A DNA stretch of 64,000 nucleotides from Botryllus schlosseri (GCA_051294905.1 CM119372.1:29886001-29950000), one strand, 5' to 3'; positions 21,373 through 62,602 are shown, counted from the first letter of the stretch. Notes: a model not told the origin generated them from the letters alone. Made by a program: numbers and translations.

Positions 21373-21416
21373 AATAAATCATCAGTTGCACTGCAAGTTG
21401 AACATAAGTCGTACGG

Positions 21417-33894: not shown

Positions 33895-34278
33895 TCAAAA
33901 ATAAGCAACATACGGGGCTCTGGGGGCTTCCGCTCTTTCTTTTAGCCACGTCGCAGTTACAAGATTACTTAGAGGGTGCATGCGGGCTATGTGTTGGAAC
34001 CACAAAATTTTTGCTTGTTCATAATTGCCATGAGTTTCAGTTATAAGTCGTTTATGTTCTTGGACTGCTTCAAACTTCCTTGTTTTTATTTCTTCTTTTG
34101 TGAGATCATGACCAAATCGATCAACATAGATGCTTACTCCATGCACCACAGCATTTATTTCAGTAGAGGCCCATTTTTCCCAACGCAATGCCGGTTCGAC
34201 CTTTTCGTATCGTTCCTTGAACATCCAGATATAGAAGTTCACATCAACTTGGGCAATATTGAGTTCCATTTGCGACAC
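33895..34278 (-). CDS. orphan family B protein (paralog of 49766-50134)
   Basis: Shared RWxxWA and EHxR...GNYxxAKxLWxQHIxRMHP; first ATG at 34269. Confidence 0.7.
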   Translation of the reverse strand: MSQMELNIAQVDVNFYIWMFKERYEKVEPALRWEKWASTEINAVVHGVSIYVDRFGHDLTKEEIKTRKFEAVQEHKRLITETHGNYEQAKILWFQHIARMHPLSNLVTATWLKERAEAPRAPYVAYF

Positions 34279-34481
34279 TCCTGGATTAATTAGGGATTGT
34301 CCAAGAATTATTTTAGCTCCTTATACAAAAGGGTGCATCATTAAACGATCCAATACATGAAGAAAGAATTATAATCATGGGGTTTCATTGATTCTAACAA
34401 ATTCCAATAATTTCGTCATCGCATCATTAGTAGATCTGTAATAATCATATACCAAACTGAAGCAAACATAACATTCCGTAT

Positions 34482-34877
34482 CTAGTATGCCCACTCACAA
34501 TTATTGCATTTCATCTTATGTATAAGTATAGCAGCTCTTACATCAGAGGGAAAGGTATCGTTAAAGAGTTTATCTGTGGTATAAATACAAAATCCAGTTC
34601 TATCCGAACAAGGCATTCTTTCTAGTACCCATCCTTCAGGTATGACATCCGAAGCAGGATGCAATCCAACACAGAAGACAAACCAACAAAACTTTGCATG
34701 TTCATAATTTTCAAACAGTATCATGCGAGAGATCCTTAAGTAAGGTGTCATAAATGTCTCCAGTTCATCCCGTGTTGTCGCAGCCCATCTGCTGAAGTCT
34801 TTGTGTTCATATTTCTTTTCAAAGGAATCGAAAAAAACGTCAAGTTCGTGCTTTACTCTAACAATTTTATCCCCCAT
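34482..34877 (-). CDS. orphan family B protein (paralog of 50140-50595)
   Basis: Shared FExxYxHxxFxxW and A..xWF...LHP...PE..L.ERxP. Confidence 0.7.
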   Translation of the reverse strand: MGDKIVRVKHELDVFFDSFEKKYEHKDFSRWAATTRDELETFMTPYLRISRMILFENYEHAKFCWFVFCVGLHPASDVIPEGWVLERMPCSDRTGFCIYTTDKLFNDTFPSDVRAAILIHKMKCNNCEWAY

Positions 34878-35007
34878 ATTTTCTTAACATAGAGAACTTT
34901 AAATTGGTTATTGGACCGAAAACTTTCCTTACTAATATTTTAAACATATATAACAACACTTCCGAAATATTCATCAATTGTGATAAACATACTAGATACC
35001 TAGTAAT

Positions 35008-35023
35008 TTACTTAGCATACATA
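35008..35023 (-). CDS. displaced 3' end (MYAK*) of the E2 gene
   Basis: ATG TAT GCT AAG TAA at 35022-35008 joins ...WTDM of the E2 once the insertion and one TSD are removed. Confidence 0.8.
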
Positions 35024-35057
35024 AGTAGTTAGTATGATCGGTCGCGATTCGTAATGG

Positions 35058-35331
35058 GGTTCTTATGGGCGGGGTGGTGACGCGCCTGAAAACCGGGGGT
35101 GGTGATGCGCCTTTTTTGCTATAGGCTGCGGCGGTGATGCGCCATGTGTTCTTATGGGTGCGGTCGTGATTCGCCTTTTTTGCTATAGGCGGTGGCGGTG
35201 ATTCGCCGTGAAAACTCGCGGTCGTGACTCGTCTTTTTTGCTATGGGCTGCGGCGGTGATGCGCCATGTATTCTTACGGGATCTGTGGTGACTCGCCATG
35301 TGTTCTTATGGGTGCGGTCGTGATTCGCACT
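35058..35331. repeat. GC-rich subterminal repeats (mirror 48251-48524)
   Basis: Recurrent GGTGATGCGCC, TTCTTATGGGTGCGGTCGTGATTCGC and TTTTTTGCTATAGGC units. Confidence 0.8.
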
Positions 35332-38300
35332 TTCAACCATCTCTCGCGTGGTGTTGAATAGTCACCAACAATAACCGCACAAACGGAAACGTGGCTTGTT
35401 GTGAGGATTAAGCAGTGCGACCTATATTTCGAATGACCTGCGCGCTGAATTGTTTCCGTGCAGTCGTGTGCTACTATCGATTATTACACTAGACCAGTCA
35501 GTGCGAAATAGTTTACCAAATCTAGGAATCAGTCGCATGGTGTTACTTTAGTAATTAGTTTACCACAGAGCCGGCGTAGACGGCGATTCGAATATCAACA
35601 ATAACCGCGTTCACATACTATCACTTCGAAAAAAGGTGTGAAATATTTGTAAAATCCTACGATCGCCCACAAGATAACACCTAAGACATAACCATTTTTG
35701 CGTCTTGTCATTACTTACATCCCAATCGCTACAGTTTAATATGTCGATGGTTTTTTACTATCAAGTAATAAGTAATGAATAACAGAACCGGTGCAGACTC
35801 TGATTCGAAAACCAACAATTTGGCACTTGCACGCGATCGCTATATGTTTTGACACTTCGGAAGAGTGGTTGACTTTAGTTGCGTGATACAAATCATGAGA
35901 ATATTCAATCAATGTACCAATTTGTCAACTTGAAATGAAACTCACTATATACAAATCAAGTTGATTCGTATTTGAATGTGTTGATTCGACACAACTCAAA
36001 TCCTTTGAGAAATCCTTTTAACACGATCTATCGAATCAAACGTAACCTGAATATTACTGACGCTAACATTCGGCCGCGTCGGATTATTCGCACATTCCGC
36101 GCTGCTGTTTTCACGTCTATAGAATCAATACCAACTATAACTCTACAAGAATCAAGAATCACAAGTATGTGCATTATACAGTTATTGTCTTTATCAACTT
36201 GAAATCAATCCCTTAACAAAAACACACATCTTATCACTTGTCAACTCTATCATGAAAATCCTCGAACCCGTATTATTAAGAATGTTATAGTACGGCGTCG
36301 GAAATCCACTCGCGAGATGTACTAAAGGTAAATCCAAATAATCCAGAATGAAATATTTGGACTTGACATTGTGTGAATTGAAATATGTTTGAAAAACATG
36401 ACTACCAACTTTCAACCCAGTCATAGTTAGAGATTATACGCATATTGATTTGAAACAAGTAATGAAACCTTACAACTCTATTCACAGTTTTCCGTTTGTC
36501 AAATAGAGTTTCAGTAAATAATTTCACTATGCTATCGCGATATTTAAATGTGTTACTACACACAATCAAGTCAATCAATGAAATCGCACCTGTTGTAAAT
36601 ATTTCACACTTGACAACCGCTTGCACATAACACGATCGAGTTGCAATGCGATGAGTTGAATCGGAATATTTCAACCTACTTTGTCAAATCGCGATTTGAA
36701 GTAGGATCGCCAGACAGACTGGGTAAACTTTCACTCCAATGCGTTTCAGATTAATTTATTCACACGATCACCATCTCGCTGTCTTCACACTTACACAATC
36801 GCGTACTGTTTCCACTCGCAACTTCGGTACGATATTTCAACTTGTCACAATAACTGATTATTCACATGTTGATTTGAAACAAAAGAAGCCTTGAACAAGT
36901 TATCTGGTTATTTTTTTTGTCGCAATTGAGTTAATGGAAATAGTATTACGCCTCGAAATTTTAACATCTTACCATACTCAAAAGAGTCAATCATGAAAAC
37001 CTTGTCAAGTAAATCCGTAAACCTTGTCAAGTAAATCCGTTTGTAACTCGACCAACCAACTATACAGTACCCGTACAGAAAGAAGACAAGATTATGCGAG
37101 TACATACAATCGCTACAATCTAAGCAAGTTCGGTTGTAGTCATATACCACCAAATCGTCTTTTTTGTTCAACTGTAAAAGTCGTTACTATTCTGTAAGAT
37201 AAAGTAATTACTACTCGGTATATTTTATAAACCAAAGTAAATACTACTCGGTGGGCGGTTTGAGATTAACATATTACATTTGAGTATACGAGATTTGAAT
37301 GTCTGACCAACGTAGTTGAGAATTCATTTCTTACAATCGAACGCAGGCGTTATATTGAAAATTTTCACGATGTAAACATTCTTATTAACACATTGATTTT
37401 GACATATGAGATTTTGTAATAGTCGATCATGACTTGATTATTAAATTATGACATTATTAGACCGGGGTTGTGTTGAAGGCTATTACGATACAAACAAACT
37501 TTACAGAAACATTGTTATTAGCATATCGATTTGTGGAACTAGATTAACATGTCAGAAATGTTTTGATTGGGAAGATTAAGCCGTGTTCGTAAAAACCACA
37601 CAGCGTATCGCGGATATCAGAAAATATTTTACAAATGTAATTGTCTCCACTAACCAAGACTAAAGATGAAAAAACAATTTCCTCTGTTAAACAATAACCG
37701 GTACAATAATTTATCATCGTAATCAGCAGTGAGAATTGCAACACTTTCGCACATTATCCGGTGTCAAGATATCACACTTGGTGAATTGACATACCGCCGC
37801 TTGATTAATGCTTAATCCGTTCGCACCATTTCACATACTTTGATCATTACAAAAGTAAATTGGAATATGTTTGCTAGATGCATTCAATTCAGTTAGAAAT
37901 GTCTGGTACACAACAATCGTAATATCAAAAAAGTACTTGCTACACTGTAATTCACTTAACGTGTTTTGCATTGTTGTTCATTTGTAGTATTGATTGTTTT
38001 TGAACCTCCAAATAATAATTCCCGACATGAAACCAAACCGCTGAAAGTCGTTACCATCACAACGAAACAATTTGTACGATGTTTGCCAAATGTATCCTAT
38101 AGTTAGGTGTACTAGAATCACTGGTCCAACACATACACCGACAATGCAATCGAAATTTTCCCCATTGTCATTCGTCAAAGTAAAGGTCGTCACAATACTC
38201 AACCCATAAAAGATCTTACTTGTATGTGATTGAATCGCAGGTAATTAACCCACTAAATCAAACCATAAGGAAATTTCACTCACTCATCGGATATGAAACA

Positions 38301-40122
38301 GCGTCACTTAATCGGCGTAGATCGTTTTACTAAATGCAAATCATACCTGACCAACAGAAAACAATTTTCACTCACCTTGTAATGAAACCAAGTGGTGGGC
38401 CTTCGTTCAATATTTTGTCTGTGTCAAATACTTTGTAATAAACACAATGGAGTGGTTGAGCTTTACATCATCAAGCTGTCATTAATAAATCAAGATTTCG
38501 GTAAACTTGTAAATGTATCGTTTAACTAACCGAGTTGTATACACAGTTTGATATTTTTGTCATTTAGTGATTGCTGAACATACCACTTCGAAATACTGCG
38601 TTGATCTCAATTCCCTTTGTCCTGATAATCGAAGTACTTTTGTTTTGAATTCATAACAATCGGCTTTTCTATGACATAATAAATTAGAAGAATTAGAAGA
38701 TTGGTTGCATATCACTAAAAATAAGATACCACACATATTATTACTGTTACTCCATTCATCGGTATTTTTTCCGTTGTCGATTTTCAAACGAGTAAAATTT
38801 ATTACTTGAGTTGCTCTGCTTACTATAATTAAATGTAAACTCACCCGTCTTTCAACAACAAACAATGTTAAAAAAGTACGCAATCAAACACAACAAGTTT
38901 TACGATACTAATAATTATCCCACATAACCCATTTCTTACCGAGGACATATGAAATATATTCATGTTACACGAAAAGATTCGCTCATGCTACAAACCTGTA
39001 CAATGATTGGTGGTGCTTTCAAACTGTTTCGATACCTCAAGAACTTTATTGTCTGAATGGTTGTTCATGTATCGTAATAATCAAGTAGTTCAACACAGAA
39101 CTAGTATTAACAGAAACACCAGAGTTGTTTACACAAAAGTTTGTCTGTGTACAGTATGCGAATACCATGTGTAAGTCCAGCACAATTGTGGTATCCATAC
39201 GAGTTTAGTTAACACAATTTACGACACCGAGGTCGCCTCATCTTTCGTAAGACAACAAACCAAGGCTTCAGGATATGTCCATGTCATAACAATAAATCAG
39301 CTACTCCAACAACAGAGTACATATGTTTTCTAGTTACGGTGCTTACATCTTACACACAAATCGACCTACTTTGCTAACGAAAAGCGCTGAGTCATCACAT
39401 GGTTATCCTCACAACAATACAACTAAAACATCCTGTCATACAAAATTGCCGTTATAGTTTGCACACCAACGATACATCGTACAAGTAGCAAGTCTCGAGA
39501 ATCCAGTTATTCAAAAAACGTGAAAGTGTTTCTACGCCAAGTCGGTATGTTGACGAAAGCATATATTGTAATATCATGATCGATTTACATTCGTTGGTCA
39601 CAAAATGTCACTACTCTAAATAATTATTTTTCACTCAAAGCCTACTTGTCGCCATTCGTTTCATCAAGCACGAGTTCAAGAAACCTGCTACGACATGAAT
39701 TGTTATTTTTATGTTGTGTAAATAGGTAATAATTAATTTTAGTAACACTAAATCAACATCATCGAGTTGCGCGAATAGATTTACATGTGGTCTTGTAGTT
39801 TTAATCGAAGTATACAGCACGGTCTAATGTAGAGTCATCTCTACTGTACAGCAACTCGGTAATCGAAATGTATTAAAATTTAAACAACGATCTTGTTTCG
39901 TCGCACCAAAAATATGTTTACCATCGCGATACTCTGCACAGGCCGTGTAAATCCTTTTCACACTCGTAATAGTATACCAACAGCTACCGGCGACAACGTT
40001 TAACAATACCAACGACACTAAACATACGATACCTACCCAAGTAAAATTACCATTTTCACCTGAAGGTCGGTCGTTACCCGAGTAGAAATACCATTGTCCT
40101 TTGGAGATTTATCGTTTACGCA

Positions 40123-40476
40123 GTGTAACAAACCCCTTTTCCTTTGGAAATCTATTTTTTCTCTGGGTAACAAACCTTTTTCACTTGGAAATATATTTTT
40201 TCTCTGGTTAACAAACCTTTTTCACTTGGAAATATATTTTTTCTCTTGGTAACAAACCTTTTTCACTTGGAAATCTATTTTTTTCCTGGGTAACAAACCT
40301 TTTTCACTTGGAAATATCTTTTTTCCTCGGGTAACAAACCTTTTTCGCTAGGAAACATATTTTTTTCCCTGGGTAACAAACCTTTTTCACTTGAAAATAT
40401 ATTTTTTCCTCGGGTAACAAACCTTTTTCACTTGGAAATATATTTTTTCCTCGGGTAACAAACCATTTTCACTTGG
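40123..40476. repeat. ~41-bp minisatellite, about 9 copies (mirror 43107-43460)
   Basis: GGGTAACAAACCTTTTTCACTTGGAAATATATTTTTTCCTC units. Confidence 0.9.
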
Positions 40477-40991
40477 CCGTCCGTCGTTTACCTGAGTAAA
40501 AATATCATTTTCCTTTGGGGATCTGGCGTTTACCCAGTGTAACAATACATTTTCTCTTGGTCATCTAGCTTTTCCTAGAGTAACAAAACCATTTTCATTT
40601 TGAAATCTGACAAACACACCAGACAATTTGATATTTTTGTATATTGTTACAACGGATAGCGACAAAATATACACCAACAACAACTCCAATACATTTGTGT
40701 AATCGCATATTCACTTGTGCTGATGCAACCCATCAAAATCATTGGTTACTCACATGTAATGTACTGTACATCGATGTGAATGTTTTGGAAAATTGGACAA
40801 TAGACTTCGATAGTTCTGTGATGTCCGGGTTCGTGCTTTGGGTTTTCCAGAGTCAAAATGTCTGAATAAAACACCTCCTCGACGATGGTTGGTATGTGGA
40901 TAACGGTGTTCGGAAAACGGTTCACCCATCGCGATAACAATTCCAGATCGAGTTTTCCCCCTGCATGTTTACTATATTGTGTCTTTATTGG

Positions 40992-41444
40992 TCAATGTAT
41001 GTCTCGACATTCAGTTTGAAATCGGAAACCCTGATAAAGTATGTAACCGGATCCGGATATCAACTCTGAATCGATAAACCAATGAACAATATTCAAAGTA
41101 AACATGGTACACCCTGTGTTTCCACGAAAAAAATACCATCCAGACATACGTCGCGCTTGTTTGCCCACACCAGTATACACGCAAATGGAGGTGTGTGACA
41201 TTGCATGCAATGTGTTGGTATACAAACATCGATCCACAGACATTATCATAGCCGGTAGTTTTGATGTAGATCGAATGTCATCACACCCGATAACAATGTC
41301 ATACCAATAAGCCACATTGCAATGACTCTGAGTCAATCTGAAGCAGGACATACAGACACACAAACAGGGAGCCGTAACATGGGGTATTCGCACGACAGTG
41401 AAAGTGAACTGTACAGTACATACCAATATTGTGATCACAGTCAA
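40992..41444 (-). CDS. hypothetical Cys-rich protein crossing the arm/spacer junction
   Basis: 150-aa ORF whose ATG overlaps the upstream ORF stop (ATGA); only a 5'-truncated mirror exists at 42249-42591. Confidence 0.4.
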   Translation of the reverse strand: MTVITILVCTVQFTFTVVRIPHVTAPCLCVCMSCFRLTQSHCNVAYWYDIVIGCDDIRSTSKLPAMIMSVDRCLYTNTLHAMSHTSICVYTGVGKQARRMSGWYFFRGNTGCTMFTLNIVHWFIDSELISGSGYILYQGFRFQTECRDIH

Positions 41445-41716
41445 ATATGCGAACCGTGCACAATCATATACCCTGGTTTTTGTTGGATATGTACGAAACC
41501 AATAAATCGATACATTTGTTTTCCTTTGACGTCAACAATACAAGCACCATTCCAATGCATCGCTCGAATGTGAGGTTCGTCGGGTGTAAAATCCATGTCA
41601 AATAACACCAAAGTGTGCCTTCCGTGTTTTATTATTTCCACCGACGCTTCTTGTCTGTGTCGTAACACTATGGTGCGTGGAGTTGAAAAACGGTAAATTG
41701 TAAAACGGATTGACAT
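41441..41716 (-). CDS. orphan family A protein, copy 3, in the palindrome spacer
   Basis: Gapless alignment with 21417-21704, about 41/88 identical by hand count (YRF, VLR, LFDxDF, WNG, DVxGK, RFxG, IQxKxG). Confidence 0.7.
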   Translation of the reverse strand: MSIRFTIYRFSTPRTIVLRHRQEASVEIIKHGRHTLVLFDMDFTPDEPHIRAMHWNGACIVDVKGKQMYRFIGFVHIQQKPGYMIVHGSHI

Positions 41717-42248
41717 GACCAACAGAATCGACGTCAATAGTCTTGTGACGATGTCGTTTCAAAATGTTACCGATCTCTTGTGGTGATGACCGTTTTTTGT
41801 AATGTCACCGGATGAACTGGACCCTTACGATGATGTGTTTTATGATTGCGTGTGAAATCACGAGGTAGTGTTCTATTGTGGTGTACGATTGCAGTCTTCA
41901 TTCCACAGAAACACACCTTATTGGATCACAATATCAGTCCGAGATTTTCAGAATCACTGTTCGCGATATTTATCTGGAGTCGTTATGTGGGAGTAGCGAC
42001 ATCCATACATCGTGACTGAAAGACTGATCGCAATCATTTCGAGCGCCGTACTTCGATGGTTCACCTTGGTCAAACGCTGTACAACAGAAAACTTCGGTCT
42101 CGACAACACGACTGATATTGACCGATGTATCCAATTGGTCTGGGTGATCTGTCCGGAGATAGGGTCATGACTATTTTGTAATGTTACAACGCGATAAAAC
42201 CATCGAGTAAATCAGTGAACGGTGTCGAAATATCGATGTAACAGCGCG

Positions 42249-50134: not shown

Positions 50135-50139
50135 TCCTC

Positions 50140-50595: not shown

Positions 50596-50743
50596 CTTAA
50601 AATAGAGTCGAATCACTATTAAATTATATGTTCAATTCTATAAGTAATTGATTCATATGCACAAAGCTAACTAGTAACATTATGTATTATCCATATGCAT
50701 CAAGAGCATTCATGCCACAAATATAATAGTCCTGCCTGCTCCA

Positions 50744-51351: not shown

Positions 51352-51356
51352 GAAAC

Positions 51357-51613
51357 TGTTATGTTCTTGATCTTGTTTGAACAATAACTCAATACGACGA
51401 GGTTGCAATATGAAATCAGTATATATTAACAGCAGAATAACTTTAGGCAGCGACACGATCCAGAGTGCAGTTAAATGAAAAGACCACGAGACAACAGAAC
51501 ACAGGATATAAATACAAGCACGACACACGAGGAAATAATGATTGGCTGTAATTACTAATCCTATAGAAAGAAAGAGTGGTACGACACTAAAACGTAAATG
51601 CACGAACATAACA
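51357..51613 (-). repeat. 3' LTR
   Basis: Two mismatches seen versus 59239-59495. Confidence 0.95.
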
Positions 51614-51647
51614 GTCCTCCCCTATAAGTTGAGAGGGTTGCCCACAT

Positions 51648-54600
51648 TTACTTAGGTCTGTAGAAATCGGTTTGCTTTCTGTTCCTAAGAGGATAACGTC
51701 TACCCGACGTACGGGCAGGACTAGCTGCAGGACCTTGTGCCCTGTTCCTAACCAATGGTTGCTCAGCTTGTGACTGTTGAGGCTGAGCAACTTCCTGTGT
51801 GGCTGTATTATTGCCAGCTGAAATCAAGCGTGGTTGGAGTTGGTTTTTGTGCCTCCTCCAAAACCCATGATCTGTTTTTATGATGTACACAACACGACCC
51901 AGTATTTCCGTCACCACGCCAGCAACCCACTTAGGTCCGCTTCGGTAACTGCGAGCGTAAACCGAGGAACCAATCTCAAAATGAGTGACTGATTGTCCAG
52001 GCGTAACGGGTTTCGATTTGTCGAAGGGCGAGCACAAACTCAACAAATTGCGCGGCTGTCGACCATGTAAAATCTCGACAGGCGTTTTCCAGTCTATGCC
52101 CGGGTGCGGTGCACATCGGTACGTAGCGAGAAGTGTTTGGAGCGCGAAGTTGAGATCTTTTCCCCCGTCGCAATTTTTTATTAATCCAGCTTTTAAAGTC
52201 TGGACGAAACGCTCCGCTTCCCCGTTCGAGGCAGGGTGAAAAGACGGTGATACCATATGGCTGATTGCCAAATTAGAGCAAAACGTATCGAATTCATTCG
52301 ATGTGAATTGCGGCCCGCCATCCGTGACAATTGTTACGGGTAAGCCTTCAATAGAGAAGACATCCCGCAAAGCGTTGACTACACACAAGGTTGTGGTAGA
52401 TCCGACATTCATTACTTTAACGAAAGGATATTTCGAATGCGCATCGACGATGACAAGAAACATTTTATTGTTTATTGGACCTGCGAAGTCCAAGTGAATT
52501 CGATCAAAGCTTTCGGAAGTTTTAGGCCATTCGCGATACTGACGATCAGGCGCTTTCATTACTTTGCGGCAAGCGTCGCAACTCTTCACGAGATTTTCAA
52601 TGTCGCGATTAATGGAAGGCCATGCGATGTAACGTCGAGCCATCTGCTTCATTTTCGCGATACCCCAATGTCCTTCGTGCAACAATGATAAGACTCGCGA
52701 GCGAAGTGACTGCGGAATTACTACGCGCTGAACACCATCAATATTGAGCATGACTATGTCTTCGTGCAGAGAAAGCGAATGTTTGCGAGTCGAAAACCAA
52801 GAAAAATCATCAATGTGCGTCTTTGGATTCCAATTACCATGAGTGACAGATAATTTTACTAGTTTCATGGTTTGGTCCTTCAGCGTCGCGTCGCGAATTT
52901 CATTGCGAGTTAACGGTAAGCCATCGAATGCCATATTAATAGCGTGAACGATCTCCGCGTTTTCACGAATTTCCAGTTCGTCAAACTCAGGGTCTGGACC
53001 CTTCGGTAGGCGAGATAAACCGTCGGCGTTTCCGTGCTGATTAGTCGGTTTATAGCGAATATCGTATTGGTAAGCCATGAGCGTTAGTGCCCATCGCTGT
53101 AAGCGTTGCGCTGTAATCACGGGAATTTTCGTGTCTGGCGAGAAAATAGCTAAAAGCGGTTTGTGGTCCGTTACGAGCGTAAATTTTCTACCATACAAGA
53201 ATTGACGAAATTTAGTGACTCCGTAAATGATTGACAGAGCTTCCTTCTCGATTTGAGAGTAGGATTTTTGCGAATCTGAAAGGGTTTTCGATGCGTGCGC
53301 GATCGGTCTCTCTTCGCCATTGTGCTCGATTGAGAGGACAGCGCCGATTCCGAATTGAGAAGCATCAGTTGACAAAATGAGCTGCTTGTTTACATCATAA
53401 TGAGCTAACTGCGTAGCGTCGATTACGTCGTTTTTGAGAATGCGAAAAGCTGCGTCACAGTCCGTATTCCAAATGAATTTCGCGTCTTTTTGAAGAAAAC
53501 GGTACAAGGCAGCGGCTTTATTCGTAAAATTAGGAATAAACGCGCGATAATAATTGACTTTGCCCAGGAATGCCTGTAGCTGGCGAACATCCTGAGGTTT
53601 AGGCAACTGTTTGATTGCGTCAACGGATTTCTGAGACGGGCGTTTGCCGTCCTTGTCGATTATATGACCAAGGTACTCGATACTACTTTTGAAAAATTCA
53701 CATTTAGCGAAGTTGACGGTGAAACCGTATTCGGTGAGGCGCTCAAAGAGTAGCGATAAGTTGCGAAAATGATCGCGTTCATCAATGCCAGTAACGATTA
53801 TGTCATCGATAAAACTAGCAACACCGGGTAAGCCGGCGATCATGGCATCAATACAGCGTTGAAAATTTGCGGGACTAGATGCGACTCCGAAACACATGCG
53901 TCGATAACGGAATAGACCGAATTGCGTGTTGATGACACACAAATTCTTCGCATCATCATCTAATTCTAGCTGAAAATAAGCATCGGCAAGATCAATTTTC
54001 GTGAAAATACAACCACCCTGTAACTTGTGAAGAATTTCATCCAAGGAGGGCAGGGGATGTTGATCTATCTGAATTTGTTGATTCAATGCTTTGAAGTCAC
54101 CACAAATGCGTATTGATCCATTTGATTTAGTGACGGCAACAATTGGTGCTGCCCAATCACTGTAATTGATTGGTTCGAGGATACCTTGATTGACTAATCT
54201 ATCCAATTCGGTTTGAACAGCGATTTGCCTTGCGAAAGGCAAAGGGCGTGGCTTGTTGAATACGGGCTTGGCATTAGGTTTCAAGTGAATTGTCACCTTT
54301 GTCTTAGTGCATCGTCCAAATACATTAGAGAAAACAGTGCATCGTCCAAATACATTAGAGAAAACGGAGGGAAATTTGGACTGAAAAGATACCAATTTGT
54401 CGTTCGAATCAGAAATGTCAATAGTATTACATGATTGCGATTTGACCATCTGCGAGGAAATTGCATCCAAAGCAGAAGTTCCCTTAGTGGTCATGGAGAA
54501 AGCATCGCTCCAATCGAGACCAAAAATGTTTTGCCCACGGTGTTCGTCGAGAACCACCAATTTTAAGCCAACTCGAACTTCAGAACCCACCTGCACGCTT

Positions 54601-54896
54601 ACAGTGCAAATACCTTTCACTTTCAGTGGCTTGTCGCCATACGCTACGAAAGAGCAATGGTATGCTGAGAGTTTCGGAGAGCCCAAAGTTTTGTACCCAG
54701 TCAATCCCACCATGGCGGAGGGTGCACCAGTGTCCCACTGTGTCGGCAACGGAAGGCCGTTGATGCTGGAGTTGATCCAGAGCTGGTTTCCTACGTGTCG
54801 ATATAGTTGATCGATGTCGAAGGAGAGGAGTGGCACTGAGCAGAAATTGACTGATGTGACCTGTTGCGTGATACTAGGTTTGGTAGACATGCACAC
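51648..54896 (-). CDS. pol: Gypsy pol: protease, RT, RNase H, integrase
   Basis: WDTGA; IDLADAY, FIDD; TDAS; HEGH..CDAC; HLDF, VTDGGPQF, NGEAERFV. Confidence 0.96.
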   Translation of the reverse strand: MCMSTKPSITQQVTSVNFCSVPLLSFDIDQLYRHVGNQLWINSSINGLPLPTQWDTGAPSAMVGLTGYKTLGSPKLSAYHCSFVAYGDKPLKVKGICTVSVQVGSEVRVGLKLVVLDEHRGQNIFGLDWSDAFSMTTKGTSALDAISSQMVKSQSCNTIDISDSNDKLVSFQSKFPSVFSNVFGRCTVFSNVFGRCTKTKVTIHLKPNAKPVFNKPRPLPFARQIAVQTELDRLVNQGILEPINYSDWAAPIVAVTKSNGSIRICGDFKALNQQIQIDQHPLPSLDEILHKLQGGCIFTKIDLADAYFQLELDDDAKNLCVINTQFGLFRYRRMCFGVASSPANFQRCIDAMIAGLPGVASFIDDIIVTGIDERDHFRNLSLLFERLTEYGFTVNFAKCEFFKSSIEYLGHIIDKDGKRPSQKSVDAIKQLPKPQDVRQLQAFLGKVNYYRAFIPNFTNKAAALYRFLQKDAKFIWNTDCDAAFRILKNDVIDATQLAHYDVNKQLILSTDASQFGIGAVLSIEHNGEERPIAHASKTLSDSQKSYSQIEKEALSIIYGVTKFRQFLYGRKFTLVTDHKPLLAIFSPDTKIPVITAQRLQRWALTLMAYQYDIRYKPTNQHGNADGLSRLPKGPDPEFDELEIRENAEIVHAINMAFDGLPLTRNEIRDATLKDQTMKLVKLSVTHGNWNPKTHIDDFSWFSTRKHSLSLHEDIVMLNIDGVQRVVIPQSLRSRVLSLLHEGHWGIAKMKQMARRYIAWPSINRDIENLVKSCDACRKVMKAPDRQYREWPKTSESFDRIHLDFAGPINNKMFLVIVDAHSKYPFVKVMNVGSTTTLCVVNALRDVFSIEGLPVTIVTDGGPQFTSNEFDTFCSNLAISHMVSPSFHPASNGEAERFVQTLKAGLIKNCDGGKDLNFALQTLLATYRCAPHPGIDWKTPVEILHGRQPRNLLSLCSPFDKSKPVTPGQSVTHFEIGSSVYARSYRSGPKWVAGVVTEILGRVVYIIKTDHGFWRRHKNQLQPRLISAGNNTATQEVAQPQQSQAEQPLVRNRAQGPAASPARTSGRRYPLRNRKQTDFYRPK

Positions 54897-54994
54897 AGGT
54901 TTGATATGACCTTTGCGACCACATTTCTGACATACTGCATGTCGATATTGACAGTCTTTTCTCTGGTGATCGATGAAACAGCGGCTGCAGGATT

Positions 54995-55245
54995 TCAGTC
55001 TTTCCTGGAAGTTGCCTTGGTTGGATTTGGAAGGTTTTTTCCCTTCTGATAACTTCCCGTCATTTTGTTGACGACGGAAGTGTCTTTACCGCTACTCTCG
55101 CCTTGGATAACTCTATCAGTTTCCAGCGTTCTCACGTATGTTGCGGCTACTTTGAGAACGTCGTCGAGGGATGGATTGGTTTGTGTTAGACAATGCCGTC
55201 TCACATCCGCGTGCTGCGTTTCTTTAATGATGAGATCGCGCATTA
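54995..55245 (-). pseudogene. gag: Gypsy gag, 3' part
   Basis: Continues VDELM|RDLII across the LINE; the CCHC knuckles follow in the pol frame after a frameshift near 55030. Confidence 0.8.
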
Positions 55246-55417
55246 TGAAAACCTAACTAAACTGAGAAGAGATCTCTTCTTCCAAGCACGAAAGCTCCAG
55301 AAGAGCATGGATTACCAGTACATATGGACCGCTGATGGAAATATTTTCATCAAGAAGGATAACGACTCAAACAGGATACATATTCGATCCTCGAAAGACC
55401 TATCCAAGATCATATAG
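55246..55417 (+). pseudogene. LINE ORF1 C-terminal fragment
   Basis: ENLTKLRRDLF...YQYIWTADGNIFIKK, typical of CR1-type ORF1 C-termini. Confidence 0.7.
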
Positions 55418-55468
55418 GCTAGCCTAAGATGGGAACATGCCTCATGATAACAAATCAAATTTGATGCA

Positions 55469-58420
55469 ATGACCCACAATATCTGTCAAGTACATGACTG
55501 TATTAGTGTTGCACCGGGAGATCCAGCTTTGGTACCAAAATCTAGAGGATTTCTTTTTGCCCATATAAATACGAGGTCATTACCAGCACACCTGGAAGAT
55601 ATCTCTGCTCTCTTCAAAACATGCAACTGTTCCCCAACGTTCATCGGCATCTCTGAAACGAAGCTGAAGAACAATTATCAAGTAAATGTTAATCTCCCTG
55701 GATATAACTTCCTACACTGCCCTTCAAAAACTAACGCAGGTGGAGTTGGTCTATATGTTAAAGAAAATCTATCGTGTCAAGAAGTACATGAGCTAAACTG
55801 CTATACAGATGGCGTCGAAAGTATTTTTGTCAGAATTGCAACACGGAATCAAAAGCCCATTATCATCGGAGTAATATATAAACATCCCGGAACTAAACAA
55901 GAAACCTTCATGGAAGAATTCTCTAAAACCTTGGACAGCTTAACCGACTCTAATAACCAATTCCTTATAATGGGAGATTTCAATATTGACCTCCTACAGA
56001 ACACAAGTTTCACCACAAAATATTCTGATATGCTTGAGTCGTACGGGGTGGTCCAGATGGCTACCAAACCAACCAGAGTGACTGACCATTCCAGTACTCT
56101 CCTGGACCACATGTATACCAACATAAGTAAATATAGACTTGCTCCATTTGTCATTGAGCACTGTATGACTGACCATTATCCTATTATGTGTCATGTCAAT
56201 CAAATTTTACCTGTTACTACTAGTATTTTTGAATGCAGAATCCCGCTGAATCCTCAGGGGATTGACGACTTCATTGAAAACATTGGAGACGCTTTCAAGG
56301 ATTATCAACTTGAGCCACTCACTAGCGAAAACTTTGACTCCCAATTTGACAAGTTTATTCTTGACATAAGTCAAGCCATTGACAAAGAATTTCCTATCCG
56401 CAAAGTCAATCGGAACGCCCGACGCCTAAAATCTAAGCCCTGGATCAGTCGAGAAATTCTGGCAGCCATCAAAACAAGAGATTGGATACATAAAAGATAT
56501 TATATTAACGGAACTGAAGATGAGAAAAAGATCTTCAAACGATATGCCAACAAGGTAACAAAAATGAAAGAAAAGGCCAAAAGAGCATTCTACATGAACC
56601 GGTTCGAGCAGAGTTCCAAGGATCAAAAGCAAACCTGGAGAACCATTCGTGAAATTGTGAACGCTTCCAATAACAAAAACGAAGCACAATTGCAGAACAT
56701 TGAAATAGCATGTGGCAATACGGTCATCAAAGATCCTGATGTTGTAGCAGAAAAGTTCAACCATCACTTTTGCCAGATTGGTTCAGAGCTAGCATCTTCT
56801 ATACCTCAAAGCCCGCATGATATCCTATCATTCATGAAGCCTCGCTCCATGAATTCCATCTTTATGGAGCCGACCGACGTAGGAGAGGTAGCAACGATAT
56901 TATCTGGAATGAAGGACACAAAAGCAGTAGGACCTGACTCAATACCAATCTACTTCATAAAACTAGTATTTAATATTATAGGAGATACAATTTGTACGTT
57001 GTTCAATGGCTCCATGAACTTGGGTATTTTTCCTAGTGCTCTAAAAACTGCCAGGGTTATTCCAGTTCATAAAAAAGGCTGCAAAAATTCAATGTCTAAT
57101 TACCGTCCCATTTCAATTCTGTCAAACCTTTCCACTCTATATGAGAAATTGCTAGATTAAAGGCTCAAGAAATTTTTTGAATTGCAATCGGTATTCACTC
57201 CATCCCAATTTGGCTTTAGATCGGGTCATAACAATAACCATGCCACCCTATCAATTGTGACAAATTACTACAAAATTATTAAAGATAAAAGAGTTGGCTG
57301 TAGTATCTTTATTGATCTTCGGAAAGCTTTTGATACTGTGAACCACGAGATACTGCTACGAAAACTAGAGCATTATGGAATTAGAGGGATTGCCAAGTCG
57401 CTGCTCACGAACTACCTTGCAAACCGTAAGCAGTTTGTGAAACTGGGTCTGGCAAAATCGGTAGAAATGGATGTAAAGTGTGGAGTGCCTCAGGGCTCAG
57501 TTTTAGGACCGACCCTATTTTTGATCTACATCAATGACATTATCAACTGTTCCTCCTTTTATACTACACTGTTTGCCGATGATACCCATCTTTTTCTTTC
57601 ATCCGATACTATAAGCAACCTACAAAGTTCTGTGCAGAGTGAACTTACAAAAGTCTCTCAATGGCTTGCTGCTAACAAACTAAGTTTAAATACCGATAAA
57701 ACTGTGATGATGCTCTTTAATACTGCTTCTGATAACCTTACTGTGAATCTAGATAATAACTGTATCTCACTGTGTGACTCAGCAAAATATCTTGGAATCA
57801 TCATTGACTCTAAATTGTCATGGAAACCGCATATTGCTCATACCATAACACAGCTTTCTAGATGTGTAGGTGTAATGACAAAACTCAAGCACATAGTTCC
57901 TAGATCTGTGCTTAGGACAATTTCCTTTTCGCTTTTTTACTCGTATCTACAGTATGGCATAATTGTATGGGGGAATGCTTGTACTTCACATTGTTCTAAA
58001 ATTCGTACCCTGCAAAACCGAGCCATGCGTTTGATGGCTGGCTTGCCCCAACGAACAAGATTATCCCAGTACTACCGCAAATACAAAATTCTAAAATTTG
58101 ACGATATTTTTACATTTGAAGTAGCTAAATTTATGCATCAATATTTTTCAAATGAATTGCCTCCTGTGTTTAATGATTTCTTCGCCCTTGCTCAAACTGT
58201 TCACTCACATAATACCAGATTTTCTTCCAAGGTAACATCTATTTTCATCGACCCACAAGTAACCTCACAAAGAAATCGATCGACTATGCCGGTCCTGTCA
58301 TATGGAATGCTATACCCTCATCAATACGGGACCTCCCATACCACTCCTTCAAAAAGGAATTATTCAGTCACCTCATCTCCCGTTACCAATGATCCGCTTG
58401 TCTCACACCAATTTTTTTAG
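55469..58420 (+). pseudogene. LINE ORF2: AP endonuclease and reverse transcriptase
   Basis: ISET, MGDFNID, LLDH, TDHYP; NYRPIS, QFGFR, IDLRKAFD, GVPQGSVLGP, FADD, KYLG; in-frame stop at 57158-57160; probable frameshift near 58270. Confidence 0.95.
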
Positions 58421-58655
58421 TTTCTTCAGTATTTTATTTTTATGCTGAGCTGAATTGATTGATCCCAACCAATGCATCCAAATTTATGACACGATATCTG
58501 TATTTGTTAATGCAGGGTGTGATCAGACTAGTTGACCCTACCCAGAGTCATATCGGTCACACCCTGTCCTATACCGTTAAGTTCATTTATTGTTGTTTCA
58601 TGTGCCAATGATGTTTTCTTTACGGTTGGACAAATCAATAAATATCTCTCTCTCT

Positions 58656-59237
58656 CATTAGCTCATCAACGTAGCTCTGATCACAGCCATCTCTTGAGCA
58701 TATGAAGTTGCAATCCTTGGAGATTCCGCGTAGAGTAGCGATCCAATCGGCGTATGACTGTCCCGGCTGCATTTTGCAATTGTAAAATTCGTACCTGGCA
58801 GCTTGCACATGAATGTAGTCTTTGATGTGTGTAGACAACTTCTCAGTCAACGCGTCGAAGGATTGTGCACTGACATCAGCAGCACCAAACAAATTACGTA
58901 GGAGCGAGTACGTTTCAGGTCCGACCCATGAGAGTAGACACGCTCTTTTCTTCTCCATGTTTGATATGCCGTAAATTGCAAGGTGATGGTTGCATCGTTG
59001 CAGATATTGGTCCCATTTCTCCTTTGATTTTACGAACGAATCAAACTTGGGAGCGGTAGCTTCAGATGTTGATGCACAGGGATTCAATCTCTGCGTTAAT
59101 TGCGCCATTTCTTCTTTGTGCTGAGCATTTTGTTGCTTCATGTCTTCTTTGTGCTGCTTCTCAAGAATTTTTAAAATACCCGATTCCATGATATATATTC
59201 GTCGCAGACAAACTTTGAATCCGACTTCTGACACCAA
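58656..59237 (-). pseudogene. gag: Gypsy gag, 5' part
   Basis: WDQYLQR, LLSWVGPETY, ARYEFY..KMQPGQSY; interrupted by the LINE. Confidence 0.85.
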
Positions 59238-59238
59238 T

Positions 59239-59495
59239 TGTTATGTTCTTGATCTTGTTTGAACAATAACTCAATACGACGAGGTTGCAATATGAAATCA
59301 GTATATATTAACAGCAGAATAACTTTAGGCAGCGACACGACCCAGAGTGCAGTTAAATGAAAAGACCACGAGACAACAGAACACAGGATATAAATACAAG
59401 CACGACACACGAGGAAATAATGATTGGCTGTAATTACTAATCCTATAGAAAGAAAGAGTTGTACGACACTAAAACGTAAATGCACGAACATAACA
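59239..59495 (-). repeat. 5' LTR
   Basis: Adjacent to the PBS; near-identical to 51357-51613. Confidence 0.95.
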
Positions 59496-60639
59496 GAAAC
59501 CACTTTGCATGCTCCGTCCACGGCTCATCATTGTAGTCCCAGTTTTGTAATCCTCCATTGCAATAAAAGCATTTCGTTCTGTCCGAATCCCCGAGATAGT
59601 ACAGACCAGCTTTAGCCAACTGTTCCGCTGTTGCTAGGATCCTTTTCCTAGGCCATTTATCATTAAATGAAGATATTCTTTGTTGTAACGATATCATATG
59701 CAAATTCATCGGGTAAAGACAAGGGAATCTTTCCATCAACTGGAGTTGTTCTTCCGGTGATGGATCCGAAGGTTCTCCCATATTGGCAGTTAGCCTTTCA
59801 ATTTTTATTCTGAGTTCGTTATCCGCCTGGTTTCTCTCGAAGTCTGTCAAAGGTATATTTTCCGCATACTCATTGTTTGCCATTTTACATTTTGTAAAAT
59901 GTCTCTGATGTTGTTCAAAGACATTATCAGTAGGCGCCCATTTTCTCAATACTCCTGAACACGAAAAACATTGTGTTCTATCAAGATTCCCTAGGTAGAA
60001 AAATCCCTGTTTTGCCAACTCCCCTACCAAGTATGGAGTAGGATAAGAAGGCCATTTGTCGAAAGTTTGCCTTCTCCCGAGTTCACTTCTCAGATTTGCA
60101 GTTCGTAATAGAGTCTCATGTTCTTGATCACAGATGTTTGCAAATACGATTTGCGGCAATGGACACTCTTCCTCTTTAATAGTTGTTCTTTGTACGTTCC
60201 GATGGGTTAGTTGTCTACTTGTAGTGAGATTAAGGTGGCACCTGATTTGTTCAAAAAGGAGCCTCCTGGAGCAATTTGAAATGGGTAAGTTGTAACCATG
60301 TTGTCCCGAAATCAAGTCACAAGTAGATTTATGCCACTTATCTTCAAAAACATCATCTCCAATGTCCCATTTTTCCACAGATATGCCACAGCAGCAACAT
60401 CTTACTCTGTCTTGAAATCCTGTCCAATAGAAACCAGCAGCGGCTAGATAACTCGATATCACAGGAGTTTCTTTGGGAAAATGTTTGAACGTTGCAAGTC
60501 TGTAATGTTCAACCCAATGATTTCCAGGTGGGATATAACTGCAGTTATGTCCAGGAGGATCACGATCTCTTTTCATCAGAATGCCCATAGTTTCAAATTG
60601 GTCGCTTCTCGGTGTAATTGCTTTTGATAGAACAGGCAT
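59496..60639 (-). pseudogene. iap: IAP 5' part: BIR1, BIR2, BIR3; intronless
   Basis: Three BIRs (LAAAGFYWTG..DRVRC; LAKQGFFY..DRTQCFSC..HQRH..C; LAKAGLYY..DRTKCFYC..EHAKWF). Confidence 0.95.
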
Positions 60640-60934
60640 TCAATAATACAGACCAGGAAGTTTAAATACAATCATACCAATCTAATATTCTAATATTATT
60701 TGATAAGCAATATGTTCTTAAATGAAAACAAAGATCATTAAAATTTCATGCAACAAAAACATAATGTTATCAATATTTTCAATAGATCACATTTCAATTT
60801 TATACAATCTTAAATTCCTCCCATGTATACCAAATTCTACAAGTTTCACAATTAGCATTGGTTATATACATTCCATAGATTTTGTGTTAAGTTATTGTTT
60901 GATCGTTTATACCTAATAATAATTAATGAAGATT

Positions 60935-61228
60935 TCAGCCAAGAATATAGGAATTTTCCAGATATTGATTCATCGACTGGGTCTTCTTATCTACTTTCTT
61001 CGAGTATATATATATATATGCGTCCATAACAGAGGTATCAGAATCCAATAACATATAACCTTTTATTCCTAGATTGGTTTGGCTGTGCCAAATCCACTTG
61101 CAATTTGCGTCTGTAACATAAGCAAGGCTATTTGCACATATCAACAACCTTGTATAGCCCATTATTACTCCTCGTATTACTTCATATATTACTCTCCTCA
61201 TACATAGGGGGGGGTATTCTTCGGACAA
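60935..61228 (-). CDS. hypothetical protein
   Basis: Co-oriented ORF overlapping the upstream ORF in another frame. Confidence 0.35.
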   Translation of the reverse strand: MSEEYPPLCMRRVIYEVIRGVIMGYTRLLICANSLAYVTDANCKWIWHSQTNLGIKGYMLLDSDTSVMDAYIYIYSKKVDKKTQSMNQYLENSYILG

Positions 61229-61587
61229 CTCCCATCAAGGTTTCCGTAATTATTAATCCATGAATTTTCATCGGGTCGTATTGTCTGTTTATTCCATACT
61301 ATGAGTCGTCGTCGTTGTAATGAATTTTTCACAATGGCAGAATCTTGGGAGTCGTCAGAGTCCATATTGCTAGATGTTTCGTCCTCCGACGTCTCATCAT
61401 GGGATGTTTCATCACCGCGTGGAAGTTGCCTTTTGTACCAATTATGTTCTTGTTCGAAAAAGGTTTTTAACATCTCCATCAGTGATGTTAAACATCCTGT
61501 ATTTTTTTGTACATCAACTTTATCTAATTGACTCATCAATTTACAAAAAATAGCAGTATTATGATCCTGTACTTCAGATAGATACAT
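61198..61587 (-). CDS. hypothetical protein with acidic DETS repeats
   Basis: ATG ORF of 129 aa; DETSHDETSEDETS. Confidence 0.55.
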   Translation of the reverse strand: MYLSEVQDHNTAIFCKLMSQLDKVDVQKNTGCLTSLMEMLKTFFEQEHNWYKRQLPRGDETSHDETSEDETSSNMDSDDSQDSAIVKNSLQRRRLIVWNKQTIRPDENSWINNYGNLDGSCPKNTPPYV

Positions 61588-61838
61588 TTTATCCCTGTGA
61601 ATATAACAATAATGTGCAATAACAATAAAAGATCTTAATTCAAGATTTCAATGCATCAAATCCCGGTATTAGATATTATATAACACACATGTGAGTCATA
61701 ACACATTCAGCGTGTGCAACATGTAATATTTGATCTTCTTGTAAGAATTGCTCATGTCTCTTCAATATATACATTTATTAAATCATTTAAGTCACTGGCA
61801 TGTATAATTTCTGTATGTACCAACATCGACATTTAGTT

Positions 61839-62393
61839 TCATGCAGGCACTTTCAAAGTCATAAATTGACAATCAGCTTCTTTTAACGATATTTCCTGCG
61901 TCTTTGCCAATGCGTAGATCTGAACTTCCGGAAAGATTATCCACATTATGAGATCTCTTTCAGAATCTCCCTTTTTTAGAAATTCCCTCATTTCAGGATT
62001 TACTCTTTTCAAAATTGTTACCCAATTTATGCAGATTTCTGCACAAGCCATTTGTATAGGTTTTTCAGGGTAAATGCTTCCTGTATAAATTTCTTCCCAC
62101 TCATTTTCCACCAGATGTTTCCCAGGCCAATTATTGTTGAATGTAGTTACACCGTACTTTTGTTTCCAATATCGTAATCGTGGATTTAATTCATCGTACA
62201 TTATATCACGTAAGTGATCCGTTAATGTATATGTCATTAACAGAAACTTCAGCGACTTTAATCCTTTATCTATAAGTGTTTCTTTCTGGGGTATCCATGT
62301 CGAATGTTGTATCTCCGGATCATCACAACGCAATCCCAAACACATTTTGATACTTTTAGTAATATTTTTACCGTATTCTAATATATTAAACAT
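61839..62393 (-). CDS. hypothetical protein
   Basis: 184-aa ATG ORF in the co-oriented block; ATAAG just upstream. Confidence 0.65.
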   Translation of the reverse strand: MFNILEYGKNITKSIKMCLGLRCDDPEIQHSTWIPQKETLIDKGLKSLKFLLMTYTLTDHLRDIMYDELNPRLRYWKQKYGVTTFNNNWPGKHLVENEWEEIYTGSIYPEKPIQMACAEICINWVTILKRVNPEMREFLKKGDSERDLIMWIIFPEVQIYALAKTQEISLKEADCQFMTLKVPA

Positions 62394-62602
62394 ATCTTAT
62401 TAGTTGAAAAGAACAATACTGAATCAAAACCTCGAGATTCCATATTTTCTTCAAATTACATCAGTTCAATAGTGACTAGCCAAACAATAACGGCAAATGT
62501 ACCTGTTAAATGTATAGTTACACAATGGGATAGATTTTTCATCTTATCATAATATAATCTTGATTGTTTACGCACAAAGGGTCTTTTGGTAGATGTTTCA
62601 TT

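Follow-up and report, generated by a model that had tools for sequence, protein, structure and literature searches.

What kind of element does the compact gene block at positions 33895 to 62602 of this 64,000-nucleotide stretch of Botryllus schlosseri DNA (the window) belong to? An earlier note on the same DNA read it as a probable segment of an endogenous large DNA virus, or else as the cargo of a giant transposon. The answer that we favor, and consider probable, is that the block is the accessory region of a gag-pol element without integrase or long terminal repeats (LTRs), and that this element is the provirus of a pararetrovirus-like, enveloped virus with a reverse-transcribed circular genome that a captured Merlin/IS1595 transposase would insert and probably re-excise. 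The block and its insertions are as follows:

33895..34269, minus strand: family-B gene B4
34482..34877, minus strand: family-B gene B3, longer in other copies
35024..48558: palindromic insertion of 13,535 bp at the 3' end of the E2 gene
48561..49004, minus strand: E2 ubiquitin-conjugating gene, cut just short of its end
49062..49571, minus strand: orphan accessory ORF (150-182 aa elsewhere)
49766..50134, minus strand: family-B gene B1, with an early stop in the window copy
50140..50595, minus strand: family-B gene B2
50744..51355, minus strand: 3' part of the IAP gene, end of BIR3 through RING
51357..59495, minus strand: Gypsy LTR retrotransposon, integrase present, within BIR3
59496..60639, minus strand: 5' part of the IAP gene, three BIR repeats
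60935..61587, minus strand: one orphan accessory gene, in two frames here (129 + 88 aa; 216-229 aa elsewhere)
61839..62393, minus strand: 184-aa accessory gene, with homologues in the related family F2
62459..62597, minus strand: 3' piece of a leucine-rich-repeat (LRR) gene
62603..64000, minus strand: second Gypsy element, with a 5-bp duplication, which splits the LRR gene and exceeds the window

Every ORF of the block is intronless and lies on the minus strand, as first described, and these are not the spliced, syntenic host genes that the earlier note had named as the outcome counting against it. The insertions bounded by target-site duplications are also real, namely the palindrome (6-bp duplication, AGTAGT ends, 6.3-kb arms that are 99.95% identical and a ~0.9-kb spacer) and the first Gypsy element (5-bp duplication, LTRs three positions apart, and a LINE nested at ~55250-58635); once they are removed the remaining parts sum to 7,023 bp, close to the ~7 kb predicted. 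The gene count had been set too high: there are nine genes rather than ten or more, and the supposed three orphans are two genes, one of which is split into two frames (the larger at 61198-61587). Several window ORFs are damaged forms of longer ORFs in other copies of the same element. The window E2 matches UQ_con (E = 1e-46), and its nearest relative is a tandem array of intronless genes on host contig C1 (80-81% identity); for the IAP, the nearest relatives are those of ascidians. The four family-B genes can be aligned with one another; their predicted model (pLDDT 73) has no Foldseek match at E<=0.001 in the viral and PDB libraries, its best VIA Z is 5.8, and the Atlas gives unnamed clusters only.

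The block is not confined to these limits, but extends into gag-pol within the window and, at the opposite side, up to C2:29979341. The earlier statement that the window holds no viral core gene does not hold either, as window gag (from 32202 down) and pol (15656-12206) belong to the block:

11925..11932: target-site duplication of 8 bp, with its twin at C2:29979341 outside the window
11933..11955, minus strand: right (3') imperfect terminal inverted repeat, CC end
12203..15656, minus strand: pol, encoding protease (DTGS), RT (YIDD), RNase H and a Tpt1/KptA-like domain, without integrase
15749..17364, minus strand: 3' part of gag, CCHC knuckle, damaged in the window copy
15764..15770, minus strand: -1 frameshift heptamer A AAA AAC in the gag/pol overlap, with a predicted hairpin after it
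17359..31004: 13.6-kb insertion within gag, with a 6-7-bp duplication, 202-bp tandem arrays and two 95-aa ORFs
31006..32202, minus strand: 5' part of gag
32211..32480, minus strand: conserved hydrophobic 89-aa ORF immediately ahead of gag
32511..32528, minus strand: primer-binding site, inside the element and not at its end

The window thus holds a decayed copy of an element, F1, that is 38-40 kb long and dispersed in the genome (40 left and 40 right exact terminal 23-mers). Its right end is at window position 11933 and its opposite end at C2:29979341, and the portion outside the window comprises accessory genes, two glycoprotein genes, the transposase and the left end. The F1 tips are imperfect 23-bp terminal inverted repeats (GG...CC) that agree at 17 of 23 positions. 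An exact 8-bp target duplication flanks 23 of the 26 copies read at both ends, and the remaining three have 8 bp with one mismatch, 9 bp, and none, respectively; internally deleted copies (4.7-27 kb) have perfect duplications of their own. LTRs are absent: when the outermost 3 kb at the two ends were compared with each other, 6/6 copies had no direct repeat >14 bp in common between them. A G-tailed purine tract lies ~212 bp inward of the left end (24/26 copies), and it is the sole one of its kind in 5/5 whole copies. From left to right, F1 encodes the Merlin/IS1595 transposase, fusion-type and mucin-stalk glycoproteins, accessory genes, the primer site, gag and pol, amounting to >20 ORFs (~16 of them accessory genes) on the same strand throughout; no conserved long frame was found in the 9-kb stretch beyond env2.

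The F1 transposase matches DDE_Tnp_IS1595 (Pfam PF12762; E = 7e-10 and 6.5e-18), and its D-D-E triad is intact in all five sequences aligned. F1 has the 5'-GG inverted repeats, 8-9-bp duplication and triad-bearing DDE_Tnp_IS1595 domain that define the Merlin superfamily, and departs from its single-gene organization in having >20 ORFs that include a selected gag-pol and a primer site. Other F1 copies contain a second IS1595-type transposase, which lies between the 184-aa gene and its neighbor and is missing from the window copy. Class I viral fusion proteins are recognized by a signal peptide, a furin site, a fusion peptide, a heptad helix and a C-terminal anchor. In the first glycoprotein, env1, a signal peptide is present together with a hydrophobic peptide preceded by a furin site, an extended helical stretch and a membrane-spanning segment, and with every listed feature represented it would be a class I-like fusion protein. 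The furin site and hydrophobic peptide are kept in four families and in P0075, and F4 env1 has a basic site. Atlas leads for env1 are spike, F and HA at 0.88-0.90 (weak), its predicted model (pLDDT 36) is unusable, and a PDB profile search returned coiled-coil look-alikes only and no fusion protein.

Three related families, F1b (24.9 kb), F2 (17.8 kb) and F3 (21.0 kb), retain the F1 layout and are represented by one copy each. Their tips are GG..CC with agreement at 14-17 of 23 positions, an 8-bp duplication is present in 3/3, and the RT-RH-Tpt1 identity for F2 and F3 is 51-55%; element sizes across the families span 17.8-40.3 kb. In the sister family F4, sampled as four stretches that are all damaged, no transposase match was found in any of the four. 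Three of them read pol-env-accessory-gag, with starts at pol aa 220, pol aa 413 and late gag, and in the fourth gag is inverted. Because the F4 pieces are circularly permuted with differing start points, they point to a circular genome map; head-to-tail concatemers or later rearrangement could be an alternative source of the permutations. The primer site is kept in two of the four stretches, a clear duplication was not found at the ends of one copy, and F4 ORF233 has no match in Pfam or PDB.

In the window copy the internal primer site of F1, ~7 kb away from the right end, is complementary at 18/18 positions, those of the non-encoded CCA among them, to the 3' terminus of the host tRNA-Ile(AAT). 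Exact 18-mers match tRNA-Ile in F1, tRNA-Thr in F1b and tRNA-Gln in F4, and F3 matches tRNA-Ile at 15/18 positions; for the F2 site, no host tRNA with an exact match turned up. An early search limited to four tRNA types had given, at best, one match with 4 mismatches. Pol terminates in the Tpt1/KptA domain in 5/5 families (F1, F1b, F2, F3 and F4), and no rve integrase match was found among the element ORFs scanned; window pol is damaged by a frame break near 14830 and one stop. The frameshift heptamer is present in 22 of 27 3' stretches, and F1b, F2 and a relative from a marine metagenome also have it where gag ends; it is absent from the F3 gag/pol junction. Purifying selection acts on every gene tested: among open-frame copies dN/dS is 0.11-0.34 in five core genes (pol 0.16, gag 0.21), 0.08-0.32 in 16 other ORFs, and 0.14-0.46 for changes unique to single copies. 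The F1 copies diverge by a median of 10%, and 11 of 210 pairs are <1% apart.

According to the reading that we favor, the provirus would be a circle with the order gag-pol-joined ends-transposase-env-env-accessory, cut open where the ends meet. The circle would be restored by excision and subsequent end-joining and would give rise to an RNA slightly over genome length, with its start a short way upstream of the primer site, for packaging by Gag; tRNA-primed reverse transcription would copy the packaged RNA into circular DNA, to be opened and inserted by the transposase. The envelope would come from the fusion and attachment glycoproteins, and the IAP, E2, LRR and family-B genes may modulate host-cell death and ubiquitin signaling. 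Merlin-type insertion with 8-bp duplications, the DDE residues, the primer site, the frameshift signal, selection, and the permuted F4 copies support this reading. Excision and end-joining of the provirus we purely infer, and against the reading stands that neither a circle nor a joined-end junction, a genome-length RNA or a particle was observed. Near the primer site no single conserved position was found for a poly(A) signal or short terminal redundancy, and a linkage analysis, meant to show whether the recombination map is circular, revealed heavy mosaicism with no gradient from the pol end to the transposase. In the genomic end lists no right end directly abuts a left end. A right-to-left joint was not among the matches listed for eight runs (three raw RNA runs, ~6-13% read, and five contig sets) searched against the 4.7-kb deleted copy, which is not evidence of absence, as the reference held only ~75 bp of the right end and high-copy flanks dominated the raw RNA matches. 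Very few raw RNA reads match the element, and no RNA data set containing it was among the matches listed.

The paucity of RNA reads would also suit the same virus with the same transposase-made insertions, if an exogenous episomal circle replicates and the germ-line copies are repeated, dead-end captures that are never re-excised. The copies diverge by a median of 10% and yet purifying selection is seen on their private changes, as expected if divergence arose in a virus pool, and a linear provirus cannot template genome-length RNA without excision; moreover, most endogenous caulimovirids are non-infectious (PMC7660458). However, the near-identical pairs and the deleted copies with their own perfect duplications suggest mobilization from genomic copies, and the transposase and terminal repeats are retained among families ~50% apart. 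We regard dead-end capture as unlikely.

Less likely still is a giant cut-and-paste Merlin transposon that swallowed a viral circle, in which the cargo and the gag, pol and env genes would be passengers, or just helpers of spread, and reverse transcription would have no role in copying. Every end feature is indeed that of Merlin as defined in PMC8101967, and neither a circle nor a genome-length transcript has been seen. However, passengers are expected to have dN/dS near 1, far from the pol and gag values, the frameshift signal is conserved, and the primer site is not only kept but re-matched to different host tRNAs with their CCA, which requires reverse transcription.

Internal priming with template jumps is known from DIRS-like elements, and a transcript that spans the linear provirus from one end to the other might be reverse-transcribed in this way with no prior excision. 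The placement of all genes on one strand and the purine tract near the left end would fit such a transcript, but the first and last 3 kb share no terminal redundancy and the permuted F4 copies point to a circle; the primer site and the right end are ~7 kb apart, and copying would miss gag-pol unless a jump occurred. We judge this route very improbable. Large DNA viruses do have intronless, tightly packed IAP, E2 and paralogous orphan genes, as this block does, but an endogenized segment of one (asfar-, baculo-, nudi- or malacoherpes-like), or a set of resident host genes, is the least credible origin: dozens of dispersed copies have the block co-linear with gag-pol and enclosed by the same two ends, its IAP and E2 are ascidian-like and its family-B model is unmatched among viral structures. 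The large-DNA-virus origin was rejected on the five whole copies without a core gene and the ascidian-like IAP: polB, major capsid and terminase, sought in these five other copies, have no candidate ORF, PIF core genes were likewise not found in them, the ORFs >350 aa in the five end-to-end copies are solely IAP, glycoprotein, gag or pol, and the largest ORF without an assigned family, the two glycoproteins aside, is 287 aa (Pfam scans of most ORFs). Of the original proposal, mobile-element or virus cargo has thus survived, with the giant-transposon fallback coming close, and the large DNA virus has not.

Reverse-transcribing viruses are known to enter genomes by a retroviral integrase with LTRs or by tyrosine-recombinase insertion. 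The captured transposase, if our reading is true, would be a third route, and pararetrovirus-like circular genomes would exist in animals, in a tunicate, a close kin of vertebrates. We think it reasonably likely that these elements represent a new lineage of animal viruses, enveloped and reverse-transcribing, with circles as large as 40 kb and standing in animals where pararetroviruses stand in plants, in which one branch became temperate by using a captured Merlin transposase as a prophage-like integrase/excisase, the provirus being a circular permutation. States with and without the transposase occur in one genome, which opens the acquisition of an integration enzyme to direct study. A reverse-transcribed genome of 38-40 kb with selected IAP, E2 and LRR genes bears on the size limit of such genomes, and elements of this kind bear on the uptake of host death and ubiquitin genes.

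Retroviridae and env-bearing Metaviridae have a gag-pol -1 frameshift, an 18-nt primer site and a class-I-like env. The element resembles them in all three and in encoding the gag, protease, RT, RNase H and tRNA primer site of Ty3/Gypsy (Metaviridae) and Retroviridae, with a circle order of gag-pol-DDE enzyme-env-accessory, but has no rve integrase and no LTRs (long terminal direct repeats), an internal primer site, inverted ends and 8-bp duplications. A literature search (mostly open-access, without Repbase) found no description of gag-pol combined with Merlin ends. Merlin/IS1595 transposons (PMC8101967) have DDE_Tnp_IS1595, ends in 5'-GG, inverted repeats that are short and imperfect, and 8-9-bp duplications, and those described there contain a single transposase gene; ends, duplications and domain are alike, whereas our element encloses 18-40 kb with selected gag, pol, primer site, glycoproteins and accessory genes. 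Teratorn (PMC5601938 and PMC6431247) is an alloherpesvirus joined to piggyBac for which excision followed by virus replication was proposed. It likewise places a virus genome within DNA-transposon ends with its own transposase, but here a reverse-transcribing gag-pol is combined with Merlin, and herpesvirus core genes with a piggyBac transposase were not found in the element ORFs. The giant planarian Ty3/Gypsy element Burro (PMC6431247) is similarly >30 kb and RT-based with an env-like fusion protein and BIR and BCL2-like cargo, but is flanked by LTRs and encodes an integrase, in one polyprotein, whereas our element has neither LTRs nor integrase and encodes its cargo as separate ORFs. Caulimoviridae have circular genomes of 7.1-9.8 kb that replicate through a terminally redundant RNA with no integration phase, tRNA-Met priming, non-enveloped particles and plant hosts (PMC7660458). 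By gene content, the element shares with them capsid-protease-RT-RNase H without integrase, tRNA priming and internal purine tracts, and F4 resembles them in its permuted integrated fragments, from which its map would be circular. The element departs from the tRNA-Met, non-enveloped, 7.1-9.8-kb, plant-infecting definition of that family in its animal host, envelope-type glycoproteins, 18-40-kb size, tRNA-Ile/Thr/Gln primer sites and Tpt1 domain, and, in four families, in having a dedicated integration enzyme.

The minus-strand gene block at window 33895..62602 is mobile cargo: of 65 matches to a family-B protein (family B being four paralogous accessory genes), 28 are at 73-100% and are spread over 12 contigs, and reading around five other copies delimited a common unit of 37,658-40,291 bp. 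As the earlier note had described, every ORF of the block lies on the minus strand and lacks introns, insertions bounded by target-site duplications (TSDs) break it, and the parts left without them total 7,023 bp (about 7 kb had been given). The insertions number two, and Pfam names an E2 enzyme and an IAP with three BIR domains and a RING. Its count of ten or more ORFs has to be lowered to nine genes, several of them damaged relative to other copies. Pfam returned no convincing match for the remaining block ORFs; four of these form family B, at 21-40% identity to the first member, and their structure model is helical and confident, with no structural relative found for it. The insertions are as follows:

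window 35024-48558, at the end of E2: palindrome of 13,535 bp, TSD-bounded
in BIR3 of the IAP: Gypsy element with a nested LINE, TSD-bounded

The window corresponds to G000:C2:29886001-29950000 in an animal assembly of 495 Mb. Nested insertions stretch its copy to 81,409 bp, with the element's right end at window 11933. This copy is dead, being broken in gag, pol, IAP, E2, LRR and both glycoprotein genes. The near-perfect palindrome, devoid of a long ORF, has a 6-bp duplication and AGTAGT ends, which we take to be Maverick-like, and its spacer recurs at 90-93% in at least 39 other places (best 40 of 1059 candidates scored). A similar palindrome with 6.25-kb arms interrupts the pol of a copy of the sister family F4 on contig C2. 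ORFs of 91-95 aa at window 21417-21704, 29760-30047 and 41441-41716 form a family common to the palindrome spacer and the gag insertion, and Pfam matched neither of the two searched. Outside the element, window 2728-3572 holds a broken P-element/THAP9-like transposase remnant.

The exact terminal 23-mers of the unit each occur 40 times (reversed controls, 0), and 31 end pairs could be matched up by position. Both ends were read for 26 copies: an exact 8-bp target duplication flanks 23 of them, another shows 8 bp with a mismatch and another 9 bp; the single copy without a matching duplication, G000:C11:19498082-19538372, is possibly a recombinant of two copies. The ends are imperfect inverted repeats beginning GG that match at 17/23 positions, no direct terminal repeats of the element were found, and both end type and duplication are those of Merlin as given in PMC8101967. 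Insertion of the element is of Merlin type. All its genes lie on the same strand, in this order:

transposase 1, first gene: IS1595-type
env1: 838 aa; signal peptide, RRRRKR furin site, hydrophobic peptide, long helix, anchor
env2: paralogue of env1, ~1,150 aa; Ser/Thr stalk, anchor
element 7.5-16.5 kb: ORF-poor region, ~9 kb without long frames
accessory set: ~16 ORFs, with an LRR protein, a second IS1595 transposase, IAP, E2 and four family-B genes
89-aa ORF
gag: CCHC knuckle
pol, last gene: protease, RT, RNase H, Tpt1/KptA-like domain

An integrase is absent from the element's pol, whose frame is -1 relative to gag. An A AAA AAC heptamer followed by a predicted hairpin marks the shift; the heptamer was present in 22 of 27 3' stretches, the motif not being found in the other five. 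Some 320 nt upstream of gag, and 7 kb in from the right end, 18 nt are complementary to host tRNA-Ile(AAT), non-encoded CCA included. This site was detected in the window, where 0.00 matches are expected by chance, and at 21 of 123 loci examined. Near the left end, at +210-213, 24/26 copies have a purine tract with a G tail. At the level of sequence, the element shows the signals of tRNA-primed reverse transcription. The ORF-poor region is moderately conserved in other copies outside the window and much shorter in the related families F1b, F2 and F3. A 188-aa accessory ORF (L016:3803-4366), with a paralogue inside the element and an F4 homologue, matches Bcl-2 weakly (E 0.0085, below cut-off).

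An RT search gave 123 matches, 53 of them full-length at 86-100%, 10 at 58-61% and 4 at 49-50%. F1b, F2 and F3, each read in a single copy (24.9, 17.8 and 21.0 kb), run from transposase through env1, env2 and accessory genes to gag and pol, and have GG..CC ends with an 8-bp duplication; their transposases are 36-75% identical and keep D-D-E, and RT-RH-Tpt1 identity is 51-84%. The F1b primer site corresponds to host tRNA-Thr(AGT) at 18/18 positions and that of F3 to tRNA-Ile at 15/18; that of F2 is Thr-like, with no exact host tRNA found. F4 (RT-RH-Tpt1 identity 38-41%) holds pol, a 233-aa orphan, an env1 homologue, accessory ORFs, a tRNA-Gln primer site and, in one copy, two family-B genes, and no transposase matched across four stretches of 50-70 kb. 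Three F4 copies run pol, env, accessory, gag, starting at pol residue 220, at pol residue 413 and late in gag just ahead of the knuckle, and in a fourth gag is inverted relative to pol. Jointly the copies supply all junctions of a circle (gag-pol, pol-env, env-accessory, accessory-gag): F4 is a circularly permuted sister family, and the Merlin-bounded families read as its circle opened between pol and env.

Outside the Botryllus genome pol of this RT-RH-Tpt1 type occurs in unnamed, mostly metagenomic proteins, and one marine contig holds gag, heptamer and pol together. In a quick tree (52 rows, 4 removed on length, named caulimovirids not among them) element-type RTs form one clade (SH-aLRT 98) separate from the sampled Gypsy-like RTs. 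About 45 short genome-wide repeats, mostly stop-containing (e.g. G000:C14:25449552), hold only ~60 codons of element pol at 69-90% and may be a non-autonomous derivative.

Frames open over >=93% of length, counted among copies with any piece of the gene, number 22/24 for transposase, 19/24 for env1, 20/24 for env2, 15/25 for gag and 16/26 for pol, with pairwise dN/dS of 0.11, 0.20, 0.34, 0.21 and 0.16, respectively (median dS 0.23-0.35). Sixteen other ORFs gave 0.08-0.32 (3-5 copies), and changes private to a single copy 0.14-0.46; these ratios show selection on all tested genes. Low env dN/dS would point to infectious spread, by an argument drawn from endogenous retroviruses. Copies are mosaics of each other and differ by a median of 10%, with <1% in 11 of 210 pairs.

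As to the cargo, the closest relatives of the IAP are ascidian (Styela clava at 44%, then Ciona, Phallusia and Clavelina), a further hint that the host is an ascidian, and the E2 is 80-81% identical to members of an intronless tandem array at G000:C1:34.12-34.49 Mb (L153-L156; ~20 genes, 51-81%), its likely donor or recipient. Elsewhere (L157-L172, e.g. G000:C2:36469745-36487165), two Polinton/Maverick-like families, a probable assignment, each carry an E2 beside tRNA-Ala, one family also with tRNA-Pro; one is 17.4 kb long, with 330-bp inverted ends, an rve-chromo integrase and copies 99.97% alike. Another intronless BIR frame (~394 aa) has ~110 genome-wide matches, mostly inverted pairs 1-15 kb apart (e.g. 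G000:C3:2137436 and 2141787), probably a second, palindromic mobile family with an IAP.

We favour, with some reserve, a circular pararetrovirus-like enveloped virus whose captured transposase would insert, and probably excise, the genome circle. From the circle a terminally redundant RNA would be transcribed, and its reverse transcription would regenerate a circle without integrase, as in caulimovirids (PMC7660458), to which cycle an envelope of predicted fusion activity would be added. Insertion by the transposase would take place where the ends of the circle are joined, and the same enzyme would cut the provirus out again, as PMC5601938 proposes for Teratorn; excision would be needed, as an RNA that starts at the internal primer site cannot cover the whole genome on a linear provirus. 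Weak tests revealed no end junction, circle or long RNA, and a linkage test for a circular map gave heavy mosaicism with no gradient between pol end and transposase. That the germ-line copies are instead dead-end captures of an exogenous virus is the strongest alternative, and an unlikely one. The earlier note's fallback, cargo of a giant transposon, comes close; a DNA transposon with passenger genes, which has the ends on its side and the reverse-transcription signals to account for, is doubtful. Linear end-to-end copying is more doubtful still, and the large DNA virus first proposed for the E2 and IAP block is very improbable.

Compared with known systems, the element has the ends and transposase of Merlin and differs in holding more than a single gene; it lacks the integrase and LTRs of Ty3/Gypsy and retroviruses, and departs from Caulimoviridae in host, size, envelope and primer. 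Literature searches of partial coverage yielded no published description of this combination of features. Burro (PMC6431247) has size, env and BIR/BCL2 cargo in common with the element, but it possesses LTRs and an integrase, both of which the element lacks.
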